A DNA stretch of 64,000 nt from Escherichia phage vB_EcoM_PHB13. Each line of letters opens with the position of its first letter. Positions within the stretch are counted from its first letter, which is position 1. The notes under the pieces were generated by a model, which worked only from the letters and a program-made list of their open reading frames with translations, did no database searches and was not told where the DNA came from. This document shows, piece after piece, positions 4,950 through 53,882 of the stretch. The stretch lies in sequence record MK573636. One strand, given 5' to 3'. Made by a program: the position numbers and the translations under genes.

Positions 4950-7058
4950 ATGAAAATGCATATTGATAATGAAGAAGTATTTGGCAGTGACTTGAGCGGT
5001 GCGGTTGATTTTTCACTGAAAGCAAGTAGCAAGGCTTTTATGGTGCTTTCTAAGAACACTTATCAATATTGTGAGCGTGCTTGCGTCCGTGAGTATTCGT
5101 GCAATGCTACCGACACTCACAAAGAAGCCGGAACCTTAGATCGTCCGTTTGATATTCATTTACCGACTGCAATCGAACCGTATTTTTCTGTGCGTGATTA
5201 TGGTACTGGTATTCCGTCTAAGAAAGAATTAGAACAACTGTTTACGGTTTACTTTGAATCAACAAAAGACCAGACTAATGACTATATCGGGTCTTTTGGT
5301 TTGGGTGCGAAGTCTGCTTATAGCTATACCGACACCTTTACAATCGTAAACTATTACAATGGTCGCGCTTATGGCTTTACGGCATTTGTGCAAAACTCTA
5401 TGCCGAAAATGGTGCAGATTTTCGACGAACCGACCTATGAAGACAATGGTCTGAAAATCACTATTCCGGTGAAAGAAAAAGATATTAAAACATGGCATCG
5501 AGAAGCACAATTTGTACTGCGTCATTTTGGGGAACATAAACCGAATATCAACGCAATCGAAATTAACTATTTCCCTAGCTTTGATAATTATTATGTGTGT
5601 AATGGGCGTGATAACGATTCCTACGTGGTATATGCAATCATGGGTAAGATCCAGTATCCAATCCCGTATGAATATATTCGCGGAACATGGTTAGAAGCTG
5701 TAAACCGCCAGCACCAGACCATTTACATTAATTTTGAGTTGGGTGATCTGGACCTGATGCCATCGCGTGAAGAAGTTCACTTGTCAATTGAGACTAAAGC
5801 GAACATCGAAAAACGTATTGCAGAAATCAATGAAATGATGTTGGAAAAGGTTAAAGAAAAGATCGCCAGCATTGAAACAGAGCGTAAACTTGCTCAATTT
5901 ATGAGCGAGTATTCATCGACTCAACGCAATATTATTGGCAAGATGGGTAAGATCGGACAATGGGATGATCCGGTAGCAATCTATAATAAGTTTGTGAATG
6001 CTGGCAAAGATTCACCCAATGACGTAGAAGGACAGGTGTATACTCTGTATCATACTCGTCACACAATCAGTAAATTGCGCCCTGCTTTCGTTAGCAGTCA
6101 ATACAACATTACGCATTTTGTATGGATGCATAAAGAAGATATTACGTGTCTTATTGATGATACCGATAAACCGAAACTGCGTGCACTGACTCTTAACGGC
6201 ATGGTCCAGGAATACGGCATCAATAAAAAGGTGCTGGTGTTCCGTCAGAACAACGAAAAACATATGGAGACTTTCGAGTACATCAAACAGTATTATGATG
6301 ATTCTGAAATGACCGTGATTAAGGTATCAGAGGCCGATGATCTTCGTGCTAAAGCAATTAAGCCGGAGAAGACCGAGCGTACACAACGTGAATCAACTCC
6401 TAAGCTGCCTAACGTGTATATCATGGAAAAGATTGGTGACAGTTGGCATAAAACCAGCCATCATATGAAAGCGGCAGAGATTCGCGAGTTATCAGGCTTG
6501 CACATGTTCCGCGTGGGTGATGCATTCGAAAGCCGTAGCCGTCAATCGATCTATAATGAAAATACATTACACACGGCGCTTGACTACTTCGGGGTAACAA
6601 AGTATATTATTACCCGTAACGAGACACAAAAATATCTCGTTGACGAACAATTGGAATGTGCGCTAGAATTTGTTCGCGGTAAGCTGGCTGGTCTGGCTAA
6701 GAAGGTTAAGACCAATCATCTGGGGTATGGCGAATATCTGGGTGTGATCACTATGTTGTTTCATGACGATGAACTAGAACGCTGTGTTCCAGAATTTATT
6801 GACAGACTGTACGGTCGTCATTATAATAAAGAGGTTTCCAAGTTACTCCTTCGTACTCGTTGGATTATGGACGAAGAAACTAAAAAGATCTGTGATGAAA
6901 AATTCACGGCAGCAAACGAACGAATTAAAGCAGTTTGTGCGAAGTTTAAAGAGAATAGCCCGTTACTGTATGATATTGTAGATAACTGGTATCGTATTCT
7001 GCATAACGACAAACGCGCACAAGACTTTATGAAACTGGTTAAGAATGTTAAATTTTAA
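4950..7058 (+). CDS. rIIA: rIIA protein (702 aa)
   Basis: Size and HATPase-like N-terminal region (DYGTGIP...GSFGLGAKSAY) match T4 rIIA; it sits between the topoisomerase gene and rIIB as in T4. Confidence 0.85.
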   Translation: MKMHIDNEEVFGSDLSGAVDFSLKASSKAFMVLSKNTYQYCERACVREYSCNATDTHKEAGTLDRPFDIHLPTAIEPYFSVRDYGTGIPSKKELEQLFTVYFESTKDQTNDYIGSFGLGAKSAYSYTDTFTIVNYYNGRAYGFTAFVQNSMPKMVQIFDEPTYEDNGLKITIPVKEKDIKTWHREAQFVLRHFGEHKPNINAIEINYFPSFDNYYVCNGRDNDSYVVYAIMGKIQYPIPYEYIRGTWLEAVNRQHQTIYINFELGDLDLMPSREEVHLSIETKANIEKRIAEINEMMLEKVKEKIASIETERKLAQFMSEYSSTQRNIIGKMGKIGQWDDPVAIYNKFVNAGKDSPNDVEGQVYTLYHTRHTISKLRPAFVSSQYNITHFVWMHKEDITCLIDDTDKPKLRALTLNGMVQEYGINKKVLVFRQNNEKHMETFEYIKQYYDDSEMTVIKVSEADDLRAKAIKPEKTERTQRESTPKLPNVYIMEKIGDSWHKTSHHMKAAEIRELSGLHMFRVGDAFESRSRQSIYNENTLHTALDYFGVTKYIITRNETQKYLVDEQLECALEFVRGKLAGLAKKVKTNHLGYGEYLGVITMLFHDDELERCVPEFIDRLYGRHYNKEVSKLLLRTRWIMDEETKKICDEKFTAANERIKAVCAKFKENSPLLYDIVDNWYRILHNDKRAQDFMKLVKNVKF

Positions 7059-44782: not shown

Positions 44783-45251
44783 AATTGATATCTATGCGGG
44801 TGGACCTTATCCATCGGGTGAATTGAGTAATTTCAATAAAAGACCATTCCGTCTATTTGGTTGCGATATTAACAGCACAGAAGGATTTTTACAGGGGCTA
44901 AGATTTAAGAACCCTCAGAGACAAAGAGAAATCTTTTTGATGCATGGTGGCAAAGCAAAAAGAACCGGAAGAACTGAAAAGATTGAGAATCACATGTTAT
45001 ATTTTCAGGGTCGCCCGATTCATCGAATGAGTGAGCATTATTACAAACTGGTACATCTGGCATTTGTTACGATGGCACGGAATAACCCAGAATTTTGTAA
45101 AGCATTACTCTCGACCGGAAATAAGAAATTACGTCATAGTATAGGTGGAACTGATCCGTTAAAGACTATATTGACTGAATCGGAATTTTGTAGTATCCTC
45201 AATGATATTCGTGAACGTTTAACAAAACGAGGTGAAAATGTCAATTCTTAA
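44772..45251 (+). CDS. NADAR-like (YbiA/DUF1768-like) protein
   Basis: GELSNFNKRPFRLFGCDINSTEGFLQGLRF resembles the NADAR signature (...SNF...F...G..F.S.EH.YQA.KF); tentative. Confidence 0.45.
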   Translation: MTSEIDIYAGGPYPSGELSNFNKRPFRLFGCDINSTEGFLQGLRFKNPQRQREIFLMHGGKAKRTGRTEKIENHMLYFQGRPIHRMSEHYYKLVHLAFVTMARNNPEFCKALLSTGNKKLRHSIGGTDPLKTILTESEFCSILNDIRERLTKRGENVNS

Positions 45252-46734
45252 TATCATTAATCAGCTTGCAGCAACAGACAAAACATCGCTGAAAGAAAAG
45301 ATCCTGAAAGAATCTGCAAGCAATGAAACGCTGAAAGAATGCTTTTATCTGGCATATTGCAAACAGGTTACGTTTGGCGTAAAGAAATACGATAAACCAT
45401 CGCGTTATTCGTCTGTATTGTCTTTATCCGGTGCATTACAGGTCTTTAAAAATAAACTTGCCACGCGTCAAGTAACTGGTAACGCAGCATTACAGCTAGT
45501 TACCGATACTCTGACTTGCTTGTCAGAAGATGATGCTAAAGTTGCAATGATGGTCCTGAATCGTGATCTGGAATGTGGTTGTTCCGCTACCACTGCAAAC
45601 AAGGTATGGAAGAAACTGATCCCCCAGCAACCGTGTCACCTTGCATCGTCATGTTCTGATAAGACTATTGCTAATATCAAGTATCCGGCGTATGCACAAC
45701 TTAAAAGCGATGGCGCTCGTGGTATGGCTGATATTGACGGGGAAACATTAGCAATCTATACCCGTTCAGGTAATACCTATCAGGGACTTGATGATTTGTT
45801 TGCGGTTTTAGAGCGTCTACGAGGCCGTGGAATTGTTCTAGATGGCGAATTGGTATATATGCCTACCCTTTCGCAAACACCAGCGCAGAACTTCGTTGAG
45901 AGCATTTATGATGGTACTCTGTCATGGATATTTGAAGAAGAGGAAATGCCATTAACGCCAGTAGCGGAAGCAGTAAAAGAATCCGTTGTTGCAGATCGTC
46001 AGACCGGAAATGGTATCCTCAACAAATCACTGAAAGGAACTATTCCAAAAGAAGAAGCCCAATGTATTGTTTACACTGTCTGGGATGTTATCGACCGTGA
46101 TGTGTATTACGGAAACGAGAAAGCAACGAAGCAATATAAAGATCGATTCGAAGAACTAAAACAGATTGTTGAAGAACTTAACGATCCTCGTGTTCAGATA
46201 ATCGAAAACACTGTAGTTAACAATATAGATGAAGCTCGCGAAGTATATCATCGCTATGTAAACATGGGCTTAGAAGGTATTATCCTTAAAAATTTACATG
46301 GTGTATTTGAAGATCGTCGCAGTAAAGATCAGGTTAAATTTAAAGAAGTGATTGACTTCGACGCGGAAATTGTTGATGTATATCCGCATAGTAAAGACCC
46401 TAATAAGGTAGGCGGTTTTACTGTCCGTAGTGCGTGCGGACGAATGATGACTAACACCGGATCGGGATTGACTGACACCACAACCGAAAAAGGTGATGAT
46501 GGTATTGAACGTGTAATTCCGTTCGATCGTCGAAATGAACTCGACCGAGAAATGTTATGGGCTGACCGTCATAACCTGATTGGAAAAGTCATTGAGATGA
46601 CATGCAACGGGTATATCCGCAGCAAATCACGTAAAGAAGATGAACCGGAGTTCTCTTTATTTCTCCCGATCATCAAACGTATTCGCTACGACAAGACCAC
46701 TGCAAATACAGTAAAAGAGGTATTCGATGTGTGA
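45232..46734 (+). CDS. 30: ATP-dependent DNA ligase
   Basis: ...AYAQLKSDGARG (adenylation lysine motif)...VLDGELVY...EGIILKN...KFKEVIDFD... matches T4 gp30 (487 aa). Confidence 0.9.
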   Translation: MKMSILNIINQLAATDKTSLKEKILKESASNETLKECFYLAYCKQVTFGVKKYDKPSRYSSVLSLSGALQVFKNKLATRQVTGNAALQLVTDTLTCLSEDDAKVAMMVLNRDLECGCSATTANKVWKKLIPQQPCHLASSCSDKTIANIKYPAYAQLKSDGARGMADIDGETLAIYTRSGNTYQGLDDLFAVLERLRGRGIVLDGELVYMPTLSQTPAQNFVESIYDGTLSWIFEEEEMPLTPVAEAVKESVVADRQTGNGILNKSLKGTIPKEEAQCIVYTVWDVIDRDVYYGNEKATKQYKDRFEELKQIVEELNDPRVQIIENTVVNNIDEAREVYHRYVNMGLEGIILKNLHGVFEDRRSKDQVKFKEVIDFDAEIVDVYPHSKDPNKVGGFTVRSACGRMMTNTGSGLTDTTTEKGDDGIERVIPFDRRNELDREMLWADRHNLIGKVIEMTCNGYIRSKSRKEDEPEFSLFLPIIKRIRYDKTTANTVKEVFDV

Positions 46735-47200
46735 TAATGAAGGGGCGAAAGCCCCTAAACCTAAAAAATTGTCAAAGAAAGAGCAACGCCAGATCCTGAA
46801 AATGAAATATGGTGGACGTTGTGCCTATTGTGGCGAGGAACTAGGGGATCGCTGGCACGCAGACCACATCAAACCAGTATTGCGACGCTCAAAGGTAGTC
46901 TATGATGAAAATGGACGAATTGCCCGTAATGATGATGGATCGTGGAAGTATAAGGTTGTAGGAATGCATAAACCGGAACATGATATACTTGATAACATGA
47001 ATCCGGCGTGTGTGCAATGCAATCTTTATAAAAGCTGTATGGGCTTAGAATACTGGCGTAAGTTTATACGCGAGAACTTCCAGAAGTACATTCAGCGAAA
47101 TATGGGGTTGCGAGCGGCTAAACGCTTTGGCTTGCTGTCAATTCATGACCAGCCAGTAGAATTTTATTTCGAAAAGTACGAGCGCGAAAATAAGGAGTAA
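46727..47200 (+). CDS. HNH endonuclease-like protein
   Basis: CAYCGEE...WHADHIKP...NMNPACVQCNLYK is an HNH motif; true start may be downstream at MKYGG given the hairpin at 46743. Confidence 0.6.
   Translation: MCDNEGAKAPKPKKLSKKEQRQILKMKYGGRCAYCGEELGDRWHADHIKPVLRRSKVVYDENGRIARNDDGSWKYKVVGMHKPEHDILDNMNPACVQCNLYKSCMGLEYWRKFIRENFQKYIQRNMGLRAAKRFGLLSIHDQPVEFYFEKYERENKE
46743..46756 (+). other. GNRA-tetraloop hairpin just after the ligase stop
   Basis: GGGGC-GAAA-GCCCC with no T-run; lies in the annotated 5' end of the next ORF. Confidence 0.45.
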
Positions 47201-47207
47201 CCATTAT

Positions 47208-47552
47208 ATGTTCTTTATGTTTATCTATATCCTTTTTGTTTTCCTGGTAGGCATGTACGCAAGCCGTTTAAACCGTAGCGTTATCGGTTATGTTCTCCTA
47301 TCTTTGATCATTAGCCCGTTGATCACCTTTATCATTTTGTTGGTGTTGGGTCCAACTAAATCATATGAACAGGAACAAGCAGACAAGCTAAAAGCAGAGA
47401 TGGTAGAGAAACAATTTGTTCAACTGTATCTAGAAAACCCAGAGTTTGAGGAAGTTTCCACCCTTAAGCGAATGTATGACGATCTAACACGATACCCTAA
47501 CTATCGAAATGTGCTGGCTATGGAAGAAGCCATTAAGCTCATGAAAAAATAA
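47208..47552 (+). CDS. small membrane protein (114 aa)
   Basis: Two hydrophobic helices (FMFIYILFVFLVGMY, VLLSLIISPLITFIILLVLG). Confidence 0.5.
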   Translation: MFFMFIYILFVFLVGMYASRLNRSVIGYVLLSLIISPLITFIILLVLGPTKSYEQEQADKLKAEMVEKQFVQLYLENPEFEEVSTLKRMYDDLTRYPNYRNVLAMEEAIKLMKK

Positions 47553-47565
47553 TTCAAAAAAGTTG

Positions 47566-47594
47566 TTGACAGGGGATCACGTATCCCCTATACT
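47566..47594 (+). promoter_or_regulatory. early promoter with stem-loop (PeSL-like, GGGGATC family)
   Basis: TTGACA 47566-47571, stem GGGGAT-CACGT-ATCCCC, TATACT 47589-47594; conserved leader and AGGAGAATCAAAA-ATG. Confidence 0.6.
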
Positions 47595-47637
47595 ACACAC
47601 ATCAAAACGAAACACACTTTCTTAAGGAGAATCAAAA

Positions 47638-47949
47638 ATGAAATACATCGTAACGCTGCCAATGATTGACTTCGACGGAACCATGAACACCCAGAAGACC
47701 ATGAGCGCGGAGAACCAACTGAAAAACGCTACCCTGATTCGTGAAGTTCGCAAGGCACTGGCAAAAGAATTTAACACCAAAATTCATTCTGTAACTGGCG
47801 AACGTTTCGCGGATCATCTTGATATCAATATCAAACCAGTGCGCAACGGTGTTATCTCTGTAACAACCAACCGCCCACATGCTGACGCTGATAATCTGAC
47901 CGCTCGCGCAGAAGATGTAATTATGACCGTTATCATGGAAAAACTTTAA
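47638..47949 (+). CDS. hypothetical protein (103 aa)
   Basis: ORF after the cassette; shares A.R.VR.A.AKEFN.K with the 50954 ORF. Confidence 0.55.
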   Translation: MKYIVTLPMIDFDGTMNTQKTMSAENQLKNATLIREVRKALAKEFNTKIHSVTGERFADHLDINIKPVRNGVISVTTNRPHADADNLTARAEDVIMTVIMEKL

Positions 47950-47958
47950 AAAAAGTTG

Positions 47959-47988
47959 TTGACAGGGGAGGTTAAACTCCCCTATAAT
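47959..47988 (+). promoter_or_regulatory. early promoter with stem-loop (PeSL-like)
   Basis: TTGACA 47959-47964, stem GGGGAG-GTTAAA-CTCCCC, TATAAT 47983-47988. Confidence 0.6.
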
Positions 47989-48022
47989 ACACACATACCG
48001 AAACGAACTAGGAGAATCAATT

Positions 48023-48202
48023 ATGAACTTCAACGAAATCATCGCTAAAATCCGCTACAACGAAGAAACCATTGAACTGATGCAAAACAATATCACCAAT
48101 GGATATATGATTGCAGCGTCACAAGAAATCATTGATTTGACGGTAGCAGAAAATGCTCAGTTGAAACATCAACTTTCAACGGCTGGCGTGATTGTTATGT
48201 AA
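48023..48202 (+). CDS. hypothetical protein (59 aa)
   Basis: MNFNEIIAKIRYNEETIELMQ... after AGGAGAATCAATT-ATG. Confidence 0.45.
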   Translation: MNFNEIIAKIRYNEETIELMQNNITNGYMIAASQEIIDLTVAENAQLKHQLSTAGVIVM

Positions 48203-48219
48203 TAAAGAGAGGTGACTAA

Positions 48220-48522
48220 ATGGCAAAAGTTCAGGTAGGTGAGGTCTTCAAAATGGAAGACCATACCGTGGAAGAGATGAAAGGCGCAGTATTGAAAGTA
48301 ATTAATTCAATGTGGCGTAGTGTGCTTTACATCAACTTTATCGACGGTGATGTGTGGTGGGCTAGCGATAGCGATAAATGGGATATCAAGTTCTACAAAG
48401 GTCATACTCACTGGTTAGGATCAGAGGATGTTGTAGAAGTTCTGGCGGTTGATGTTATGCCAGGAGAGATCGAGAATCTTAGCGGAACAGCAAAAGAAGC
48501 ATTGACACGCCATTTTGCGTAA
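48220..48522 (+). CDS. H-x-H-W family paralogue 1 (100 aa)
   Basis: ...YINFIDGDV...KGHTHWLGSEDVVEVLAVDV... Confidence 0.55.
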   Translation: MAKVQVGEVFKMEDHTVEEMKGAVLKVINSMWRSVLYINFIDGDVWWASDSDKWDIKFYKGHTHWLGSEDVVEVLAVDVMPGEIENLSGTAKEALTRHFA

Positions 48523-48578
48523 TGTAGTATAACAATAATCGGGAGGGTAATACTCTCCCACAAATTGAGGATAATATT

Positions 48579-48770
48579 ATGTGTGGTCTTAAAATGGTTG
48601 CTGAATATAAGCGAACTGGTAATGTTATGATGTATCGACGCAATGCCAACGAAGAATGGAAACCTTCAAACCGCATTAAATCCATCCAGACGTTTATGAA
48701 TAACATCAAAGAAAACCTTTTCGTTAAGCGTGCTGGTGCTGGACATTGGGAAGTTTACGAAGCTGTATAA
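48579..48770 (+). CDS. hypothetical protein (63 aa)
   Basis: ORF after GAGGATAATATT-ATG; preceded by a stem GGGAG...CTCCC lacking a -35. Confidence 0.5.
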   Translation: MCGLKMVAEYKRTGNVMMYRRNANEEWKPSNRIKSIQTFMNNIKENLFVKRAGAGHWEVYEAV

Positions 48771-48786
48771 TTTTGAGGAAAATATT

Positions 48787-49095
48787 ATGGAACAAACTAA
48801 GCTATTTGTCGCGGAACCTTTTGTAAGAGACAATAAAAATCTGGCTAAAACAATCATTTTGTATTCGGATTGGATCTTTTATATCGATGGTAATTTAGAC
48901 GTATATTGTCGCACAGCTCCAACTGATTCGTTTTATATCGAAGAAAACGACACTCATAATCATTGGTATGATGGAAACGACAAAACCGAACTAGCTGTTG
49001 TCCTAGCGTCAGACGTAGAACCTGAAAACGCGGACAAAGTAGCAGACAAATTTATGAAGTACGCATATAAAGATAAAAATGAAGATGAAGAATAA
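48787..49095 (+). CDS. H-x-H-W family paralogue 2 (102 aa)
   Basis: ATG 48787; ...WIFYIDGNLDVY...DTHNHWYDGNDKTELAVVLASDV... Confidence 0.55.
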   Translation: MEQTKLFVAEPFVRDNKNLAKTIILYSDWIFYIDGNLDVYCRTAPTDSFYIEENDTHNHWYDGNDKTELAVVLASDVEPENADKVADKFMKYAYKDKNEDEE

Positions 49096-49102
49096 AAAGT
49101 TG

Positions 49103-49131
49103 TTGACAGGGGATCACCGATCCCCTATAAT
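49103..49131 (+). promoter_or_regulatory. early promoter with stem-loop (PeSL-like, GGGGATC family)
   Basis: TTGACA 49103-49108, stem GGGGATC-ACC-GATCCCC, TATAAT 49126-49131. Confidence 0.6.
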
Positions 49132-49165
49132 ACACACATACCAACGAGATATAGGAGAATCAAAA

Positions 49166-49333
49166 ATGTTCCAGACTAAAGCAGAATGCGAAGCATACAT
49201 TGTAGCAAACCACGGTGAAGACTACCTGAAATTCGATATCGTAGTAGCACAGAAGATCACCGGAATGGTTGCAAAATATCTGGGTGTTAAAGAAGGTTAC
49301 TATCCTAGCAACGCACCAGAAATTAACAAATAA
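49166..49333 (+). CDS. small protein (55 aa), copy 1 of a duplicated gene
   Basis: MFQTKAECEAYIVANHGEDYLKFDIVVAQKITGMVAKYLGVKEGYYPSNAPEINK; near-identical to 52424-52591. Confidence 0.6.
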   Translation: MFQTKAECEAYIVANHGEDYLKFDIVVAQKITGMVAKYLGVKEGYYPSNAPEINK

Positions 49334-49336
49334 TAG

Positions 49337-49371
49337 TTGACAATGATTAAAGGGAGTAGTAAGATACTCCC
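49337..49371 (+). promoter_or_regulatory. early promoter with stem-loop (PeSL-like, GGGAGTA family)
   Basis: TTGACA 49337-49342, TAAGAT 49360-49365 within GGGAGTAGTAAGATACTCCC. Confidence 0.6.
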
Positions 49372-49397
49372 ATCAAGACAACAAACGGAGAATCAAA

Positions 49398-49577
49398 ATG
49401 AAAGCTATCGAAGTTCAGAAGTACATGGAAATCATCGTTGAAAGTAAAGCACATTTAGTGTTGACTACTCACGTAGGATATGATAAAAATGTGCATATGC
49501 TGGTAGACAACATCGGCTGGATGAAGTTTAATCCTAACGAGAACGTACAAGCTCAAGAAATGACCATCCCTTTCTAA
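49398..49577 (+). CDS. hypothetical protein (59 aa)
   Basis: MKAIEVQKYMEIIVESKAHLVLTTHVGYDK...; not in the ORF track. Confidence 0.45.
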   Translation: MKAIEVQKYMEIIVESKAHLVLTTHVGYDKNVHMLVDNIGWMKFNPNENVQAQEMTIPF

Positions 49578-49589
49578 GAGGAATATATT

Positions 49590-49868
49590 ATGATGCGAAT
49601 TACTGCAACGCTGGATAAGACACACAAAGAAAGATTTTTCGGTATGATCTTAAAAACGCCGATTTTCGATAATTACCTTTATGTTGACTATAACGGTCAC
49701 ATTAGCTATAAATGTAAAAATGATATTCGTGATTCCTTTGGTGATAAATCACAAGCCGATATTCACGATCATTGGTGGAACCATGACGAACCTTTACGGG
49801 TTATCGCAGTTGATGTAAAAACAACAAAAGAAGCTGATAAGGTAGTGAATGATTATGAGCAAATTTAA
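49590..49868 (+). CDS. H-x-H-W family paralogue 3 (92 aa)
   Basis: ...NYLYVDYNGHISY...DIHDHWWNHDEPLRVIAVDV... Confidence 0.55.
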   Translation: MMRITATLDKTHKERFFGMILKTPIFDNYLYVDYNGHISYKCKNDIRDSFGDKSQADIHDHWWNHDEPLRVIAVDVKTTKEADKVVNDYEQI

Positions 49869-50064
49869 AGATTATAAAGCATATCAACAGATCTTGCGAG
49901 TATACGAACCAGAGTTCGCCGAAAAGATGATGGAAGATGCATCAAAATGCCCGTCCTTTTCTGGAAACAAAAACCATTATTCTACTGGTATTGTATCATG
50001 GAAAGAAACCGCATATACTCAACAATGGATAGATGTGTTTTCAAAAACTCTTGATTGGTGTTAA
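49855..50064 (+). CDS. small protein, MSKFKDY family copy 1
   Basis: MSKFKDYKAYQQI...MMEDASKC...; tandem paralogue of the next ORF. Confidence 0.5.
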   Translation: MSKFKDYKAYQQILRVYEPEFAEKMMEDASKCPSFSGNKNHYSTGIVSWKETAYTQQWIDVFSKTLDWC

Positions 50065-50066
50065 TT

Positions 50067-50282
50067 ATGAGTAAATTTAAAGATTATCGAGCATATAAAG
50101 CGATCTGCGATATATTCGATGAAAAGACCGCTCATGCAATGATGGAAGATGCAGAACAATATGAATCATTCGTCAATTCCAAAGATTGCACAGTAAACGA
50201 GGTTGTGTGCTGGAAAGATACAAAGTATGAAGAAAAATGGATTACTGTGTATTACGGAGAACTAGAATATGAAATTAACTAA
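50067..50282 (+). CDS. small protein, MSKFKDY family copy 2
   Basis: MSKFKDYRAYKAI...MMEDAEQY... Confidence 0.5.
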   Translation: MSKFKDYRAYKAICDIFDEKTAHAMMEDAEQYESFVNSKDCTVNEVVCWKDTKYEEKWITVYYGELEYEIN

Positions 50283-50589
50283 AAAGATTTTCCCAGAATT
50301 GCGTAACTGTCTGTTACTGGTTACTGAATATAAACCTTATACGATCTACTTGTATGTTGATGAAAATCTGAAAATCCGTTACTATGATTATACGTCTCCA
50401 GTAATGAGATCATTTGCTCACGCGATAGCAAACAATTGTATGAATCATAATCATTGGGTAAGTGATAATGATCATGATGCGTCAGAAGTTGTAGTGATCG
50501 CATGGAATCTATCACCAGCGGAAGCAGATCAAGCACGCATTAAGCATTATGCGAAAAACAATTGGTTTGACCTTATAAGTGAGGACTAA
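50269..50589 (+). CDS. H-x-H-W family paralogue 4 (106 aa)
   Basis: ...YTIYLYVDENLKIRYYDY...NHNHWVSDNDHDASEVVVIAWNL... Confidence 0.55.
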   Translation: MKLTKKIFPELRNCLLLVTEYKPYTIYLYVDENLKIRYYDYTSPVMRSFAHAIANNCMNHNHWVSDNDHDASEVVVIAWNLSPAEADQARIKHYAKNNWFDLISED

Positions 50590-50593
50590 TATT

Positions 50594-50872
50594 ATGTTCA
50601 AAGTAGGTGATAAGTTTATTCTTAGTCGTGATATTCTCCCTAATCTGAAAGGTTGTATCATCAATCCTAGTAAAAATTCATGGTTTTATCTGTTTATCGA
50701 CGACAAACTGAATGTACGCGCCGAATATAAAGAAGGTCTTCGTACTGGTCTAGGTTTCTTTCACGATCATGATCATAGCCATTGGCTAAACGGTGGATTC
50801 GAAGCAACGGTGCTAGCGGTTGATGTGACTTACACGAACATCATAGAAAAATATCAAAAAATTATTTTATAA
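50594..50872 (+). CDS. H-x-H-W family paralogue 5 (92 aa)
   Basis: ATG 50594 after GAGGAC; ...WFYLFIDDKLNV...HDHDHSHWLNGGFEATVLAVDV... Confidence 0.55.
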   Translation: MFKVGDKFILSRDILPNLKGCIINPSKNSWFYLFIDDKLNVRAEYKEGLRTGLGFFHDHDHSHWLNGGFEATVLAVDVTYTNIIEKYQKIIL

Positions 50873-50878
50873 AAAGTG

Positions 50879-50913
50879 TTGACATAAGATCGGGTGTATA
50901 GCATAATACACCC
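50879..50913 (+). promoter_or_regulatory. early promoter with stem-loop (PeSL-like, GGGTGTAT family)
   Basis: TTGACA 50879-50884, 17-nt spacer, CATAAT 50902-50907 in loop of GGGTGTAT...ATACACCC. Confidence 0.6.
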
Positions 50914-50953
50914 ATCGAAACGAGATACACTTTCTAACTAGGAGAATCAAATT

Positions 50954-51241
50954 ATGGCATACATCACTATCACTCTGAAAGTTAACAAATTTGCTCACGC
51001 TGCACACGAAACCGATAATGCAATCCGTAACAACAAGTTTGCACGTCTGGTACGCGATGCAGTAGCTAAAGAGTTCAACTTCAAATTTGCAGATGGTAAA
51101 GTTATCACTAAATGGACTCATGACGGCGAAACTAAAGTAGAACTTGCTGACAACTTCGCAAATCAGGAATATGCACACCGCCGCATCAATGAAATCATCA
51201 GCGATGAACTCTACTACGGAGTACAGGAAGGTTTGTTTTAA
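50954..51241 (+). CDS. hypothetical protein (95 aa)
   Basis: ORF after the cassette; weak similarity to the 47638 ORF. Confidence 0.55.
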   Translation: MAYITITLKVNKFAHAAHETDNAIRNNKFARLVRDAVAKEFNFKFADGKVITKWTHDGETKVELADNFANQEYAHRRINEIISDELYYGVQEGLF

Positions 51242-51245
51242 TATA

Positions 51246-51267
51246 GGGGGCGTTAAGCCCCTTTTAA
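51246..51267 (+). terminator. rho-independent terminator
   Basis: Hairpin GGGGC-GTTAA-GCCCC followed by TTTT. Confidence 0.55.
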
Positions 51268-51290
51268 TCTATCTGAATGAGGATATCACT

Positions 51291-51599
51291 ATGAAAAATC
51301 TTGTAGTTGAATTTACCCGCGAGAATTTACCACAATTTCGCAATTCTCTGCTTAAACTAGAGAACAGTAATTATGATGTATATTTTTACATCACCGAAGA
51401 TCTAGAGATCCTTTACGCTGATTACCCAGGTCCGATCCGTACCTTCGAAACCGCATCAAAATATAAAAATGTGCACGGTCATGAGCACTGGTTACGAGAA
51501 AACCCAGGTCGCAAGAAAGCACGCGTTAAAGTGTTGGCGATTGACATAACACCAGCATACGCCGACCGGATTGCACAGAATGATTATTTGTCTAAATGA
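51291..51599 (+). CDS. H-x-H-W family paralogue 6 (102 aa)
   Basis: ATG 51291; ...YDVYFYITEDLEILYADY...HGHEHWLRENPGRKKARVKVLAIDI... Confidence 0.55.
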   Translation: MKNLVVEFTRENLPQFRNSLLKLENSNYDVYFYITEDLEILYADYPGPIRTFETASKYKNVHGHEHWLRENPGRKKARVKVLAIDITPAYADRIAQNDYLSK

Positions 51600-51606
51600 T
51601 TTCATT

Positions 51607-51633
51607 AGCCGACCTTAGTGTCGGCTTTTTTAT
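51607..51633 (+). terminator. rho-independent terminator
   Basis: Hairpin AGCCGAC...TCGGCT followed by TTTTTTATT. Confidence 0.6.
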
Positions 51634-51657
51634 TGCATAAAATTTAAAAAAAAGGCA

Positions 51658-51686
51658 TTGACACCAGATCACGCCTATAGCATAAT
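51658..51686 (+). promoter_or_regulatory. early promoter (degenerate GGGTGTAT-family cassette)
   Basis: TTGACA 51658-51663, 17-nt spacer, CATAAT 51681-51686; right arm ATACACCC kept, left arm degenerate. Confidence 0.5.
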
Positions 51687-51726
51687 ACACCCATCGAAAC
51701 GAGATACCACTTAGGAGAATCAAACA

Positions 51727-51996
51727 ATGGCGCTGACTAAAACCACTACCAACTTTGCAAAACGTCACGGCTTCGACCTTGAAATCAATAGCTTTAACGA
51801 TTACACCCTTCTGTGTGTATATGAAATCGAAAATGATTGCGAGTGGATGTTCAGCTATCGCGTAAACGAAGACGGATCTTTCACTTGGAACGGAAATATC
51901 TATCTTGCACAGGAAGTAAAAGAAGAACTTCCGGCGACTATCAAAGATGAGAAACATTTACGTCAAGTTTTAAAATTTATTTCTGAAAATATCTAA
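51727..51996 (+). CDS. hypothetical protein (89 aa)
   Basis: ORF after TTAGGAGAATCAAACA-ATG. Confidence 0.55.
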   Translation: MALTKTTTNFAKRHGFDLEINSFNDYTLLCVYEIENDCEWMFSYRVNEDGSFTWNGNIYLAQEVKEELPATIKDEKHLRQVLKFISENI

Positions 51997-52003
51997 AAAG
52001 TTG

Positions 52004-52032
52004 TTGACACCAAAGTAAGAACATAGCATAAT
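52004..52032 (+). promoter_or_regulatory. early promoter (degenerate GGGTGTAT-family cassette)
   Basis: TTGACA 52004-52009, 17-nt spacer, CATAAT 52027-52032, then ATACACCC. Confidence 0.5.
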
Positions 52033-52065
52033 ACACCCATACCGAAACGAACTGGAGAATCAAAA

Positions 52066-52347
52066 ATGAAATTCATCAAAGCAACCGAAATCCTGAAAAA
52101 CAAAGAAGCATACATCGGAAACATCGTTGGTATGAACATTCGCGGCGCTGGTAGCCAGTGGACCAAACTGGTTGATGTTAAAGCTAAAGGCGATAAAATT
52201 GAGTTCACTGTAAAAATGCTTACTCATAACGCACATATGGGTATCAAGACAAAAACGATGGCAGCAGATAAAAGCATCAACTATCAGGATCTGGGTGATT
52301 GGCTGAACTGGTGCAAAATGCACAACATCGAAACTAATCACGAATAA
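52066..52347 (+). CDS. hypothetical protein (93 aa)
   Basis: ORF after GGAGAATCAAAA-ATG. Confidence 0.55.
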   Translation: MKFIKATEILKNKEAYIGNIVGMNIRGAGSQWTKLVDVKAKGDKIEFTVKMLTHNAHMGIKTKTMAADKSINYQDLGDWLNWCKMHNIETNHE

Positions 52348-52361
52348 TTTTAAAAAAGTTG

Positions 52362-52390
52362 TTGACGGGGATCGGGAGATCCCCTATAAT
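52362..52390 (+). promoter_or_regulatory. early promoter with stem-loop (PeSL-like, GGGGATC family)
   Basis: TTGACG 52362-52367, stem GGGGATC-GGGA-GATCCCC, TATAAT 52385-52390. Confidence 0.6.
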
Positions 52391-52423
52391 ACACACATAC
52401 CGAAACGAAATAGGAGAATCAAA

Positions 52424-52591
52424 ATGTTCGAGACTAAAGCAGCATGTGAAGCATATATCATTGAAACCCACGGCGAAGATTATCTGAAATTTGACATTGT
52501 AGTAGCACAGAAGATTGTAGGGATGGTTGCGAAATACCTCGGAGTTAAAGAAGGTTACTATCCAAGCAACGCACCGGAAATTAACAAATAA
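52424..52591 (+). CDS. small protein (55 aa), copy 2 of a duplicated gene
   Basis: MFETKAACEAYIIETHGEDYLKFDIVVAQKIVGMVAKYLGVKEGYYPSNAPEINK; about 90% amino-acid identity to 49166-49333. Confidence 0.6.
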   Translation: MFETKAACEAYIIETHGEDYLKFDIVVAQKIVGMVAKYLGVKEGYYPSNAPEINK

Positions 52592-52606
52592 TTTTTATAA
52601 AAAGTG

Positions 52607-52635
52607 TTGACAGGGGAGACACCCTCCCCTATAAT
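52607..52635 (+). promoter_or_regulatory. early promoter with stem-loop (PeSL-like)
   Basis: TTGACA 52607-52612, stem GGGGAG-ACACC-CTCCCC, TATAAT 52630-52635. Confidence 0.6.
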
Positions 52636-52675
52636 ACAACCATCAAGACGAGATACCACTTAGGAGAATCAAACA

Positions 52676-52927: not shown

Positions 52928-53169
52928 AAAGAAAATTAATTAAACGAAATAAGGAATTTTTGAATAACTGCATTAAGGTTGCTAATGGTTGGCCTTTGTT
53001 CCTCTTCCTTTATGATTGGTATTCTAAACAATCGGTAGAGGAAACACGACACTATAAGAAGATCAGAAAAGAATCATATACAAAACAAGGCCGCATTAAC
53101 GGACTTTACTTAATGTGGCACGGCAAAGAACCTTCTAAAATCTGTGTTGGATTAAAGGGGCGTATATGA
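52924..53169 (+). CDS. hypothetical basic protein (81 aa)
   Basis: GTG start overlapping the previous stop; its stop overlaps the next start (ATGA). Confidence 0.45.
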   Translation: MKRKLIKRNKEFLNNCIKVANGWPLFLFLYDWYSKQSVEETRHYKKIRKESYTKQGRINGLYLMWHGKEPSKICVGLKGRI

Positions 53170-53882
53170 AACAAAAATTAATATTCTGCAACTTTGACGG
53201 ATCGGGGATAATGGGGCTAGAATGGGCTAAAGCAGGTCATAAGGTGATCTGCTTTAATGCAGATGATGCCGACCACGGCACATACAAAAAGTATAATACC
53301 CGATTTGAACATCCAAACATTACATATGTAAACACATGGATTGATTTGGATTGGCTGGAAAGAGCAATGGACCTTGAATGGGGAAAACCAGATATTATCT
53401 TTGCATTCCCACCGTGCACCAATTTAGCTGTTAGTGGCGCTGCACACTTTGAACGAAAGAAACGAGAACAAGGACCATTAATTCAAGTTCATGATGTAAG
53501 GGCAGCTAAAATAACCGCTTATTTGGGCGAATGGTTAGAAGTTCCCTACATGATAGAGAATCCTGTAAGCGTTATCTCTAGCATGTGGCGTAAGCCTGAT
53601 TACATGTTCCACCCGTGGGAATATGGCGGTTATTTGCCGGAATATGATATACATCCTACGTTTCCTGAGTATATTGCCTCCCGTGATATGTACCCGAAAA
53701 AGACTTGCTTATGGACGGGACAAGGTTTTATAATGCCAGAAAAGAAACCTATACCGATTAATAAAGGGTACAGTAAACAGCATTCTAAGCTAGGCGGGAA
53801 AGGAACCAGAACAAAGACTATCAGGTCACTTACCCCGCGAGGATTCGCAAAGGCAGTATTTGAAGCCAATAAGGATCTATGA
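53166..53882 (+). CDS. cytosine-C5 methyltransferase-like catalytic core protein (238 aa)
   Basis: Motif I-like FCNFDGSGIMG, motif IV-like IIFAFPPCTNLAVSGA (Pro-Cys) and motif VI-like YMIENPVSV in DNA C5-MTase order; too short for a target-recognition domain. Confidence 0.5.
   Translation: MKQKLIFCNFDGSGIMGLEWAKAGHKVICFNADDADHGTYKKYNTRFEHPNITYVNTWIDLDWLERAMDLEWGKPDIIFAFPPCTNLAVSGAAHFERKKREQGPLIQVHDVRAAKITAYLGEWLEVPYMIENPVSVISSMWRKPDYMFHPWEYGGYLPEYDIHPTFPEYIASRDMYPKKTCLWTGQGFIMPEKKPIPINKGYSKQHSKLGGKGTRTKTIRSLTPRGFAKAVFEANKDL

Follow-up and report, generated by a model that had tools for sequence, protein, structure and literature searches.

T4-type phages encode small early proteins for host takeover and anti-defence, such as Dmd, Arn, Alc, AsiA, Stp and the internal proteins, which typically comprise about 60-110 amino acids, are often acidic and stem from variable regions of the genome. 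More broadly, the hyperplastic regions of these phages contain many genes of unknown function, and it is there that anti-defence and host-range determinants tend to be located. In the phages RB49 and phi1, the hyperplastic region has been described as a series of orphan open reading frames (ORFans) flanked by early-promoter stem-loop (PeSL) cassettes, which combine a sigma-70 promoter with a stem-loop (Arbiol, Comeau, Kutateladze, Adamia and Krisch 2010, PMC2839356; Comeau et al. 2014, PMC4122927). PeSLs were defined in this very region, with ORF192, ORF210 and ORF211 as examples; their promoter and terminator activities have been studied by lacZ fusions, and experiments in RB49/phi1 showed them to work in both capacities (PMC2839356). 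Here, we describe an array of six short open reading frames (ORFs), p1 to p6, at positions 48220-51599 of a 64,000-nucleotide stretch of Escherichia phage vB_EcoM_PHB13 (sequence record MK573636; the whole stretch is referred to as the window). All six genuinely code for proteins and belong to a single family of paralogues, ancient and restricted to one lineage, which we term the HxHW family. A 5-kb stretch around the array shares 93-96% nucleotide identity with 58 phage records of the genus Krischvirus (RB49, Phi1, JSE, E26, ECD7, GEC-3S and others), i.e. T4-type coliphages of the Straboviridae, and the window represents an RB49-like genome.

All six ORFs lie on the plus strand, and each of them starts with ATG behind its own GAGG-type Shine-Dalgarno sequence. 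The first, p1 (48220-48522; 100 amino acids), carries the motif HTHW...VLAVDV, is the orthologue of RB49p208 and belongs to phrog_16486. It is followed by p2 (48787-49095; 102 amino acids; HNHW...VLASDV; orthologue of RB49p206; phrog_15965), a strongly acidic protein with a net charge of -12, and by p3 (49590-49868; 92 amino acids; HDHWW...VIAVDV; orthologue of RB49p203; phrog_15972). Further downstream are p4 (50269-50589; 106 amino acids; HNHW...VIAWNL; orthologue of RB49p200; phrog_9345), p5 (50594-50872; 92 amino acids; HSHW...VLAVDV; orthologue of RB49p199; phrog_17255) and p6 (51291-51599; 102 amino acids; HEHW...VLAIDI; orthologue of RB49p197; again phrog_9345), the last of which has a hairpin on either side. 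The strand after H-x-H-W departs slightly from the consensus in p4 and p2. All six orthologues are annotated as 'hypothetical protein' in RB49 and likewise in E26.

A first-pass annotation of the bare sequence had placed six ORFs with these motifs at these positions, where every one of them was recovered, and had regarded them as divergent paralogues. Profile searches, motif counts and existing protein families agree on this point. A hidden Markov model (HMM) built from five copies and run against the 595 six-frame window ORFs of at least 40 amino acids (51,852 residues) found the sixth copy in each case, with E = 1.2e-6, 1.4e-10, 1.1e-9, 2.1e-14, 5.5e-9 and 8.9e-13, and the best unrelated ORF in these leave-one-out searches had an E-value of at least 0.012. 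The resemblance among the six copies is thus more than chance. H-x-H-W itself occurs six times in the same 51,852 residues against 0.54 occurrences expected from composition, and all six fall within p1-p6; moreover, the PHROG profile of one copy also matches other copies. Pairwise identity among the six proteins is 22-30%, p4 and p6 being the nearest pair (phmmer E ~1e-15), and a profile search of the 595 ORFs found no seventh copy within the window. The novelty of this result is modest: the sequences became public with the RB49 genome, and the cassette dynamics of the region have been published already. What is added is that six 'ORFans' constitute a single family, merging five PHROGs, with a defined core motif and without a detectable relative, and this common motif reduces six unknowns to one tractable problem. 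The earlier work, in contrast, treats the ORFs of the region as unrelated orphans and makes no mention of paralogues (PMC2839356).

Each subfamily is under purifying selection, and there is no arms-race signature. Where substitutions sufficed, orthologue comparisons with RB49, E26 and L004, a diverged 170-kb metagenomic phage, gave ratios of nonsynonymous to synonymous substitution rates (dN/dS) mostly between 0.06 and 0.33, at dS of up to ~1.5. For p1, the ratio is 0.06 against RB49 and 0.12 against L004; p2 gave 0.11-0.19 against diverged loci, p3 0.09-0.25 and p4 0.19-0.33. The exception is p2 against E26 with 0.71, a near-identical pair that differs by four substitutions. A dN/dS comparison had been suggested earlier as a check on diversification among the copies, and for the orthologues it points to constraint instead. 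These data also speak to the idea that p1-p6 are non-functional passengers hitch-hiking with mobile PeSLs, their motifs being leftovers of recent duplication or chance. The region is indeed known for cassette shuffling (PMC2839356), and copies have been lost in the phages FL04 and kvi. However, selection and conservation largely refute this explanation, which we regard as very improbable: in addition to the low dN/dS, subfamilies persist between lineages with a ligase identity of just 72%, leave-one-out E-values reach down to 2e-14, and the fold predictions for two paralogues are confident and concordant.

The proposal that the array arose by repeated duplication and diversification stands, but the process is ancient rather than ongoing. 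The same subfamilies occur in the same order in RB49, E26, JK32, Brandy and G2494, all of which have six copies, and likewise in kvi, where p6 is broken. L004 retains the order p1, p2, p3, p4 and p6 and has a second p4-like copy where p5 would be, and the 2.1-kb contig L003 holds five domains in four genes, namely a p1-like gene, a fusion gene, a p3-like gene and a p4-like gene. In L007, a contig of a sister lineage, there are two p2-like copies only; its ligase is 72% identical to that of Krischvirus and less than 60% identical to that of every other phage. Because synteny and subfamily conservation reach these diverged relatives, the duplications predate the genus, and the array has undergone slow birth and death rather than current amplification.

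Two further observations concern the membership of the family. The fusion gene of L003 (P0087; contig positions 823-1434; metagenome SRR8048117) encodes a 203-amino-acid natural tandem fusion of a p5-like and a p2-like HxHW domain, a hint that protomers may contact each other or self-associate. In addition, some Krischviruses have an 88-amino-acid ORF just 5′ of p1 (7581-7847 in L004; 5108-5374 in L013/G2494; C4MZ33 in JSE), which is absent from the window. Foldseek relates its model to the family with E 1.9e-3 and a template-modelling (TM) score of 0.59-0.67, hhalign gives a probability of 17%, and GNGHL replaces HxHW; judged by these comparisons, it may be a degenerate seventh member.

As far as the searched sequences reach, the family does not extend beyond Krischvirus and a small number of uncultured relatives, so that a search of T4-like genomes, as recommended in the first-pass annotation, does not reveal a general T4-like family. 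An exhaustive search with a profile of 22 members against 1.84 billion (1.84e9) representatives, one per 50% cluster of ~15 billion proteins, returned 22 matches. Nineteen of these are genuine small-protein clusters of 68-203 amino acids (mostly ~80-130), and those traced to their source all come from Krischvirus-type DNA. The other three, long repeat proteins (an RCC1-like, a carboxypeptidase-regulatory-like and a eukaryotic one), proved spurious, as they share generic beta-hairpin repeats only. Similarly, tblastn with P0087 against 50,697 isolated phage genomes found Krischvirus records alone. In a 12-kb stretch of T4, the best ORF reached E 0.43 with the family HMM, and hhalign assigned T4 30.7, the one T4 protein compared by profile, a probability of 0.5%, i.e. 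unrelated; within this scope, the positional counterparts in T4, gene 30.x and alt.x, showed no detectable homology to the family.

Protein family databases were equally silent. Neither Pfam and NCBIfam searches with the six copies nor a Pfam search with 37 members produced a match, but only scattered sub-threshold hits (PROCT, Imm19, T4_Y03C and others), none of which recurred. The five PHROGs are all of unknown function and have no link to an annotated PHROG, and a sequence profile search of the PDB gave nothing significant, the best hit being a sand-fly salivary protein with E 0.07. A search of 8 million papers retrieved nothing on the RB49p197-p208 locus tags and nothing that combines Krischvirus with anti-defence. 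The first-pass annotation had been unable to place the family and had named a profile match to a characterised family as grounds for refutation; no such match was found, and the family is as hard to place as it appeared.

Several Krischviruses have lost part of the array. FL04 (L012; PP358550.1), which was isolated on E. coli K-12 MG1655, retains only p1 and p2. At its junction (5905-6700), compared with window positions 49085-49345 and 52343-52603, the p2-side flank is joined to the PeSL/o191 copy. The crossover falls within the PeSL, between window positions 49095-49113 and 52352-52372, and the resulting deletion of 3258 bp extends from o205 through o193, including p3-p6. Its left partner is the plus-strand PeSL at 49095-49165, which lies directly 3′ of p2, corresponds to PeSL206/205 of RB49 and heads o205; the right partner is the plus-strand PeSL at 52354-52423 before o191. 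Such recombination of one PeSL with another is a feature shared with the described ORFan cassettes. The two crossover partners each precede one of two near-identical 55-amino-acid paralogues (49166-49333 and 52424-52591, orthologues of RB49p205 and RB49p191; phmmer E 5e-34), which bracket p3-p6. Together with their PeSLs (49095-49334 and 52354-52592), these ORFs make up a 172-nt direct repeat of 85% identity, the FL04 crossover lying in the PeSLs just upstream. On the retained side of FL04, the o207 and p2 frames are annotated as a single 172-amino-acid ORF.

Smaller lesions affect p6. In kvi (L010; MN850615.1, 4421-4878) it is frameshifted into two ORF pieces, and in JSE (EpJSE_00203; P0081) it is truncated before HxHW, kvi and JSE both being viable isolated phages. 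At least p3-p6 can thus be dispensed with for growth on a laboratory host. FL04 without p3-p6, kvi with its broken p6 and relatives with 2 to 6 copies thus constitute a natural set of knock-outs, and a comparison on host-range or defence panels is therefore directly feasible.

Each HxHW protein is predicted to be a soluble, mostly acidic single domain of ~90-105 amino acids. AlphaFold2 models of p5 (m20dc84563235; predicted local distance difference test (pLDDT) 85.9, predicted TM score (pTM) 0.79) and p6 (m934f430ac2d7; pLDDT 80.8, pTM 0.76) agree on the order beta1, alpha1, beta2, a beta3-beta4 hairpin containing the Y-L-Y-I-D strand, a variable loop, a short helix or turn with HxHW, beta5 (VLAVDV) and a C-terminal helix. 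There was no significant match to any solved structure, the weak ones including Cif and other papain-like peptidases as well as YopQ, and in BFVD, Foldseek matched nothing but the Krischvirus paralogues. In the numbering of p5, His63 and Trp64 are the only residues common to all of 37 diverse members, 35 of which also have H61, and a Tyr in the hairpin is conserved in at least 90%; the Phe before the motif is invariant in a 30-member alignment. The only further conserved column with a ligand-type residue is the Asp of the hairpin (28 of 37), replaced by Asn in p1 and by Thr in p6. Members of one orthologue group, by comparison, differ by changes and indels that concentrate at the N-terminus, on either side of HxHW (in the preceding loop and directly behind the motif) and where the last helix begins.

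The paired histidines had originally been taken as a hint of metal binding, a suggestion that now appears weak. One could imagine a metal-dependent mini-enzyme or metal-binding protein in which H-x-H, together with the hairpin Asp or a His from a second subunit, holds Zn, Ni or Fe for catalysis or assembly. Besides the conservation of H63, H61 and, in part, the Asp, extra His residues beside the motif in p5 (HDHDHSHW) and p3 (DIHDHWW) would fit, as would a sub-threshold match of p5 alone to the MPN-type family PROCT (E 0.0017; 18.7 bits versus a cut-off of 23.6). Yet, the first His is replaced in conserved natural orthologue clusters (P0082, P0084 and P0086, with TSNHW, PSNHW and ND-NHW), PROCT does not recur in the other 36 members, and ~95 amino acids are very few for an enzyme. 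A mononuclear site calls for at least three invariant residues of a ligand type (His, Cys, Asp or Glu), of which the 37 members offer H63 only. The JAMM spacing H-x-H-x7-S-x2-D occurs in none of the 37, nor was there a match to Pfam JAB, Prok-JAB or RadC, the profiles that accompany the motif in JAMM/MPN+ proteins; spacing, profile and fold searches thus rule out a JAMM/MPN reading of H-x-H. Because the first His is replaced, the Asp is patchy, JAMM spacing is missing and PROCT does not recur, a canonical mononuclear metal site is not conserved, and we consider a metal-dependent function unlikely overall. The conserved residues may instead form a metal site to which more than one subunit contributes, or a pocket for a ligand with Tyr, Phe, His and Trp in its wall.

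Such a pocket would invite comparison with Tad1, Tad2 and Acb2, which are sponges of nucleotide-type immune signals. Here, Tyr, Phe and His-x-His-Trp would sequester a signal of this type, with a different ligand for each paralogue. It is in line with this that the most conserved residues are aromatic or His (the invariant His and Trp, the second His and the Tyr at 90% or above, and the largely conserved Phe) and that the proteins are small, dispensable and found in an early context. DUF2829, the family of the anti-Thoeris sponge Tad2 and of AcrIIA7, likewise consists of small phage proteins built from a beta-sheet plus helix. However, none of the 37 members matched Pfam DUF2829 at E <= 10, sequence similarity to it is not detectable, and neither is a sequence match to solved structures; the weak structural matches point just as much to unrelated folds (YopQ, Cif and papain-like peptidases), and six different sponges in a single phage would be unprecedented. 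We therefore give small-molecule sponging a low probability. Much the same low probability attaches to a wider version, in which the HxHW domain would be an unrecognised fold whose His-Trp pocket, with Tyr and Phe, binds a small ligand or a recurring feature of host immune effectors, the six members forming a sponge or decoy battery in which every member is matched to its own signal or toxin. If true, this would be a new class of anti-defence protein, organised as a multigene family that is reshuffled by PeSL recombination.

The transcriptional setting of the array follows from its PeSLs. Nine sigma-70-consensus cassettes lie within 47.5-52.7 kb (at ~47558, 47951, 49095, 49329, 50871, 51650, 51996, 52354 and 52599, spanning 47558-52656), in keeping with the first-pass picture of six genes interleaved with promoter cassettes and unrelated small ORFs. 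Seven of the nine match 11-12 of the 12 consensus positions. Their layout comprises an AT-rich tract, TTGACA, a spacer of 17-18 nt that usually contains a G/C stem (GGGGATC...GATCCCC), TATAAT and a common ribosome-binding site, TAGGAGAATCAAA. The plus-strand PeSL at 47951-48022 (TTGACA, 18 nt with a G/C stem-loop in the spacer, TATAAT) heads o209 and p1 as well as o207 and p2, with a weak internal promoter at 48502. A PeSL-like early promoter on the same strand (49329-49397; 10 of 12 consensus positions) heads o204, p3, o202, o201, p4 and p5, and the plus-strand PeSL at 50871-50953, directly 3′ of p5, heads o198 and, beyond a hairpin, p6. Directly 3′ of p6, the plus strand carries an intrinsic-terminator-like hairpin followed by a T run (51607-51626), and the corresponding site is an annotated terminator in G2494. 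Two more G/C-rich hairpins have no clear T run: one at 48541-48559 (GGGAGGGTAATACTCTCCC) after p1, the other at 51245-51262 (AGGGGGCGTTAAGCCCCT) between o198 and p6, which is also annotated as a terminator in G2494. Rfam returned no RNA family match in 47.0-53.5 kb. With respect to RB49, the promoter function of PeSL206/205 has been assayed by cloning it in front of a lacZ reporter that lacks a promoter, and PeSL193/192 has been used in reporter assays as well (PMC2839356). Taken together, the promoter consensus and the published work on PeSLs make early expression of p1-p6 a reasonable inference.

The array resembles PeSL-associated early ORFans in its hyperplastic location on the early-gene strand, its sigma-70 PeSL-headed operons and its loss by PeSL recombination, and ORF192, ORF210 and ORF211 even flank it. 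It differs in how the genes are placed. HxHW genes are never the first behind a PeSL but always second or later in a unit, and whereas the genes directly behind a PeSL use the ribosome-binding site of the cassette (TAGGAGAATCAAA(N)ATG), p1-p6 each use a different GAGG-type site. Because they lack the cassette site, the family members are internal genes of their units rather than cassette 'cargo'. Two tandem ORFs of 69 and 71 amino acids (49855-50064 and 50067-50282), which are paralogous to each other (E ~4e-17) and start with MSKFKDY..., lie between p3 and p4. The pairs p3/o202 and o201/p4 each overlap by 14 nt, and only 4 nt separate the stop of p4 from the start of p5; the overlaps of the 69- and 71-amino-acid ORFs with p3 and p4 suggest translational coupling. 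Linked two-gene modules were considered too, given the pairs o209-p1 and o204-p3, both of which also occur in L003. Since o209 and o204 are mutually unrelated and the o209-like gene of L007 does not adjoin a family member, there is no strict two-gene module.

A further possibility is that the proteins are small oligomeric SH3- or Sm-like beta-barrels that bind nucleic acids or have a regulatory role; possibly as mixed rings of several paralogues, they would act at an early stage of infection on the RNA or DNA of host or phage. Several paralogues are co-transcribed, some of them translationally coupled, and the P0087 fusion hints at contacts between protomers. However, the net charge is negative in 34 of the 37 members, with -12 to -14 in the p2 type, and this acidity disfavours a general nucleic-acid-binding role. 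Nor is there an Sm/Hfq sequence motif. Because copy number varies from 2 to 6 among viable lineages and FL04 keeps p1 and p2 only, an obligate hetero-oligomer is unlikely as well, and the barrel model as a whole seems distinctly improbable.

Our preferred, if tentative, explanation, to which we would grant somewhat less than an even chance, is that p1-p6 act as accessory proteins early in infection, binding or inhibiting targets that differ from one paralogue to the next although the scaffold is the same. Under this proposal, the proteins would be non-enzymatic factors, with the Y-x-Y-I-D hairpin, HxHW, the VLAVDV strand and a conserved Phe as the core of the scaffold. Each paralogue would bind or block a host or defence target of its own through the parts that vary, namely the N-terminus, the C-terminal helix and the loop that precedes HxHW, and the invariant His-Trp would more likely serve the structure or contacts of the scaffold than form a metal centre of the classical kind. 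Growth, shrinkage and reshuffling of the array would be due to homologous recombination of one PeSL cassette with another. A role in host takeover or anti-defence, as envisaged in the first-pass annotation, would be compatible with the early promoters and with the natural loss of copies from viable phages. The T4-type early proteins introduced above offer an analogy, as they share with the HxHW family size, early sigma-70 context, location in a variable region, dispensability on laboratory hosts and, often, acidity. They differ in that neither sequence nor significant structural similarity links the two, that T4 has no counterpart at the locus and that six paralogues per genome are unusual.

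Conceptually, the array also recalls the MGF110, MGF360 and MGF505 multigene families of African swine fever virus (ASFV) and the host-range families of poxviruses, families of eukaryotic viruses that experiments have shown to act in host range and immune evasion. Common to both are tandem divergent paralogues in the plastic part of a genome that is otherwise conserved, copy numbers that vary between isolates and copies that are dispensable in culture. The proteins are unrelated, though, and the likeness is a conceptual one.

Immunity proteins provide another comparison, as divergent immunity genes form arrays beside polymorphic toxins. By analogy with these, or with T4 Dmd, p1-p6 could be immunity- or antitoxin-like decoys, each neutralising a different toxic host effector of abortive-infection or toxin-antitoxin systems. 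The tandem array of divergent small acidic proteins would suit this, and one member has a sub-threshold match to Pfam Imm19 (E 0.048). That match is found in 1 of 37 members and lies above any significance cut-off, and there is no adjacent toxin gene. A structural match to Tis1 (PA14_01140; PDB 6ox6_B), the immunity protein of the type VI effector Tas1, is below usual significance at 6-8% identity, and here, too, the genomic context differs, the HxHW array having no toxin partner. We rate the immunity-like explanation as rather improbable.

Several points weigh against the binder/inhibitor proposal itself. It draws only on context and analogy, and the invariant His-Trp with its near-invariant second His might just as well belong to a catalytic centre or to a site that holds a metal or a ligand. 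The losses in FL04 and kvi demonstrate dispensability on laboratory hosts only. Early expression is an inference, and p6 follows a hairpin and lacks its own PeSL. Finally, purifying selection with an orthologue identity of 85-100% is unlike the usual outcome of a fast arms race. Should the proteins nevertheless bind immune components, they would represent a new inhibitor scaffold; otherwise, the array is a clean example of PeSL-driven birth-and-death evolution in a phage multigene family.

The flanks of the array are well defined. Upstream are gene 30, which encodes the DNA ligase (45232-46734), and an HNH endonuclease gene (46727-47200), and downstream are a DNA methyltransferase gene (53166-53882) and alt, with every gene on the same strand. 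Wherever a locus extends far enough to include the flanking genes, the family is found at this position, with ligase/HNH on one side and alt on the other. In T4, alt.1 alone separates gene 30 from alt, which makes the array block a lineage-specific insertion.

Three small ORFs of the region deserve mention. A 114-amino-acid ORF with a hydrophobic N-terminus (47208-47552) is the orthologue of RB49 ORF211, a homologue of an ORF in the Vibrio fischeri superintegron that was reported as unique to RB49 in comparison with phi1 (PMC2839356); it is also present in E26, and no match was found in L004 or L007. An ORF210-like gene (103 amino acids; 47638-47949) and an ORF198-like gene (95 amino acids; 50954-51241) are weakly related to each other (E ~1e-4) through a common ...AKEFN... 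segment. The ORF198 protein is 100% identical in RB49, E26 and the diverged L004 at a dS of 0.24-0.31, a far stronger constraint than that on its neighbours.

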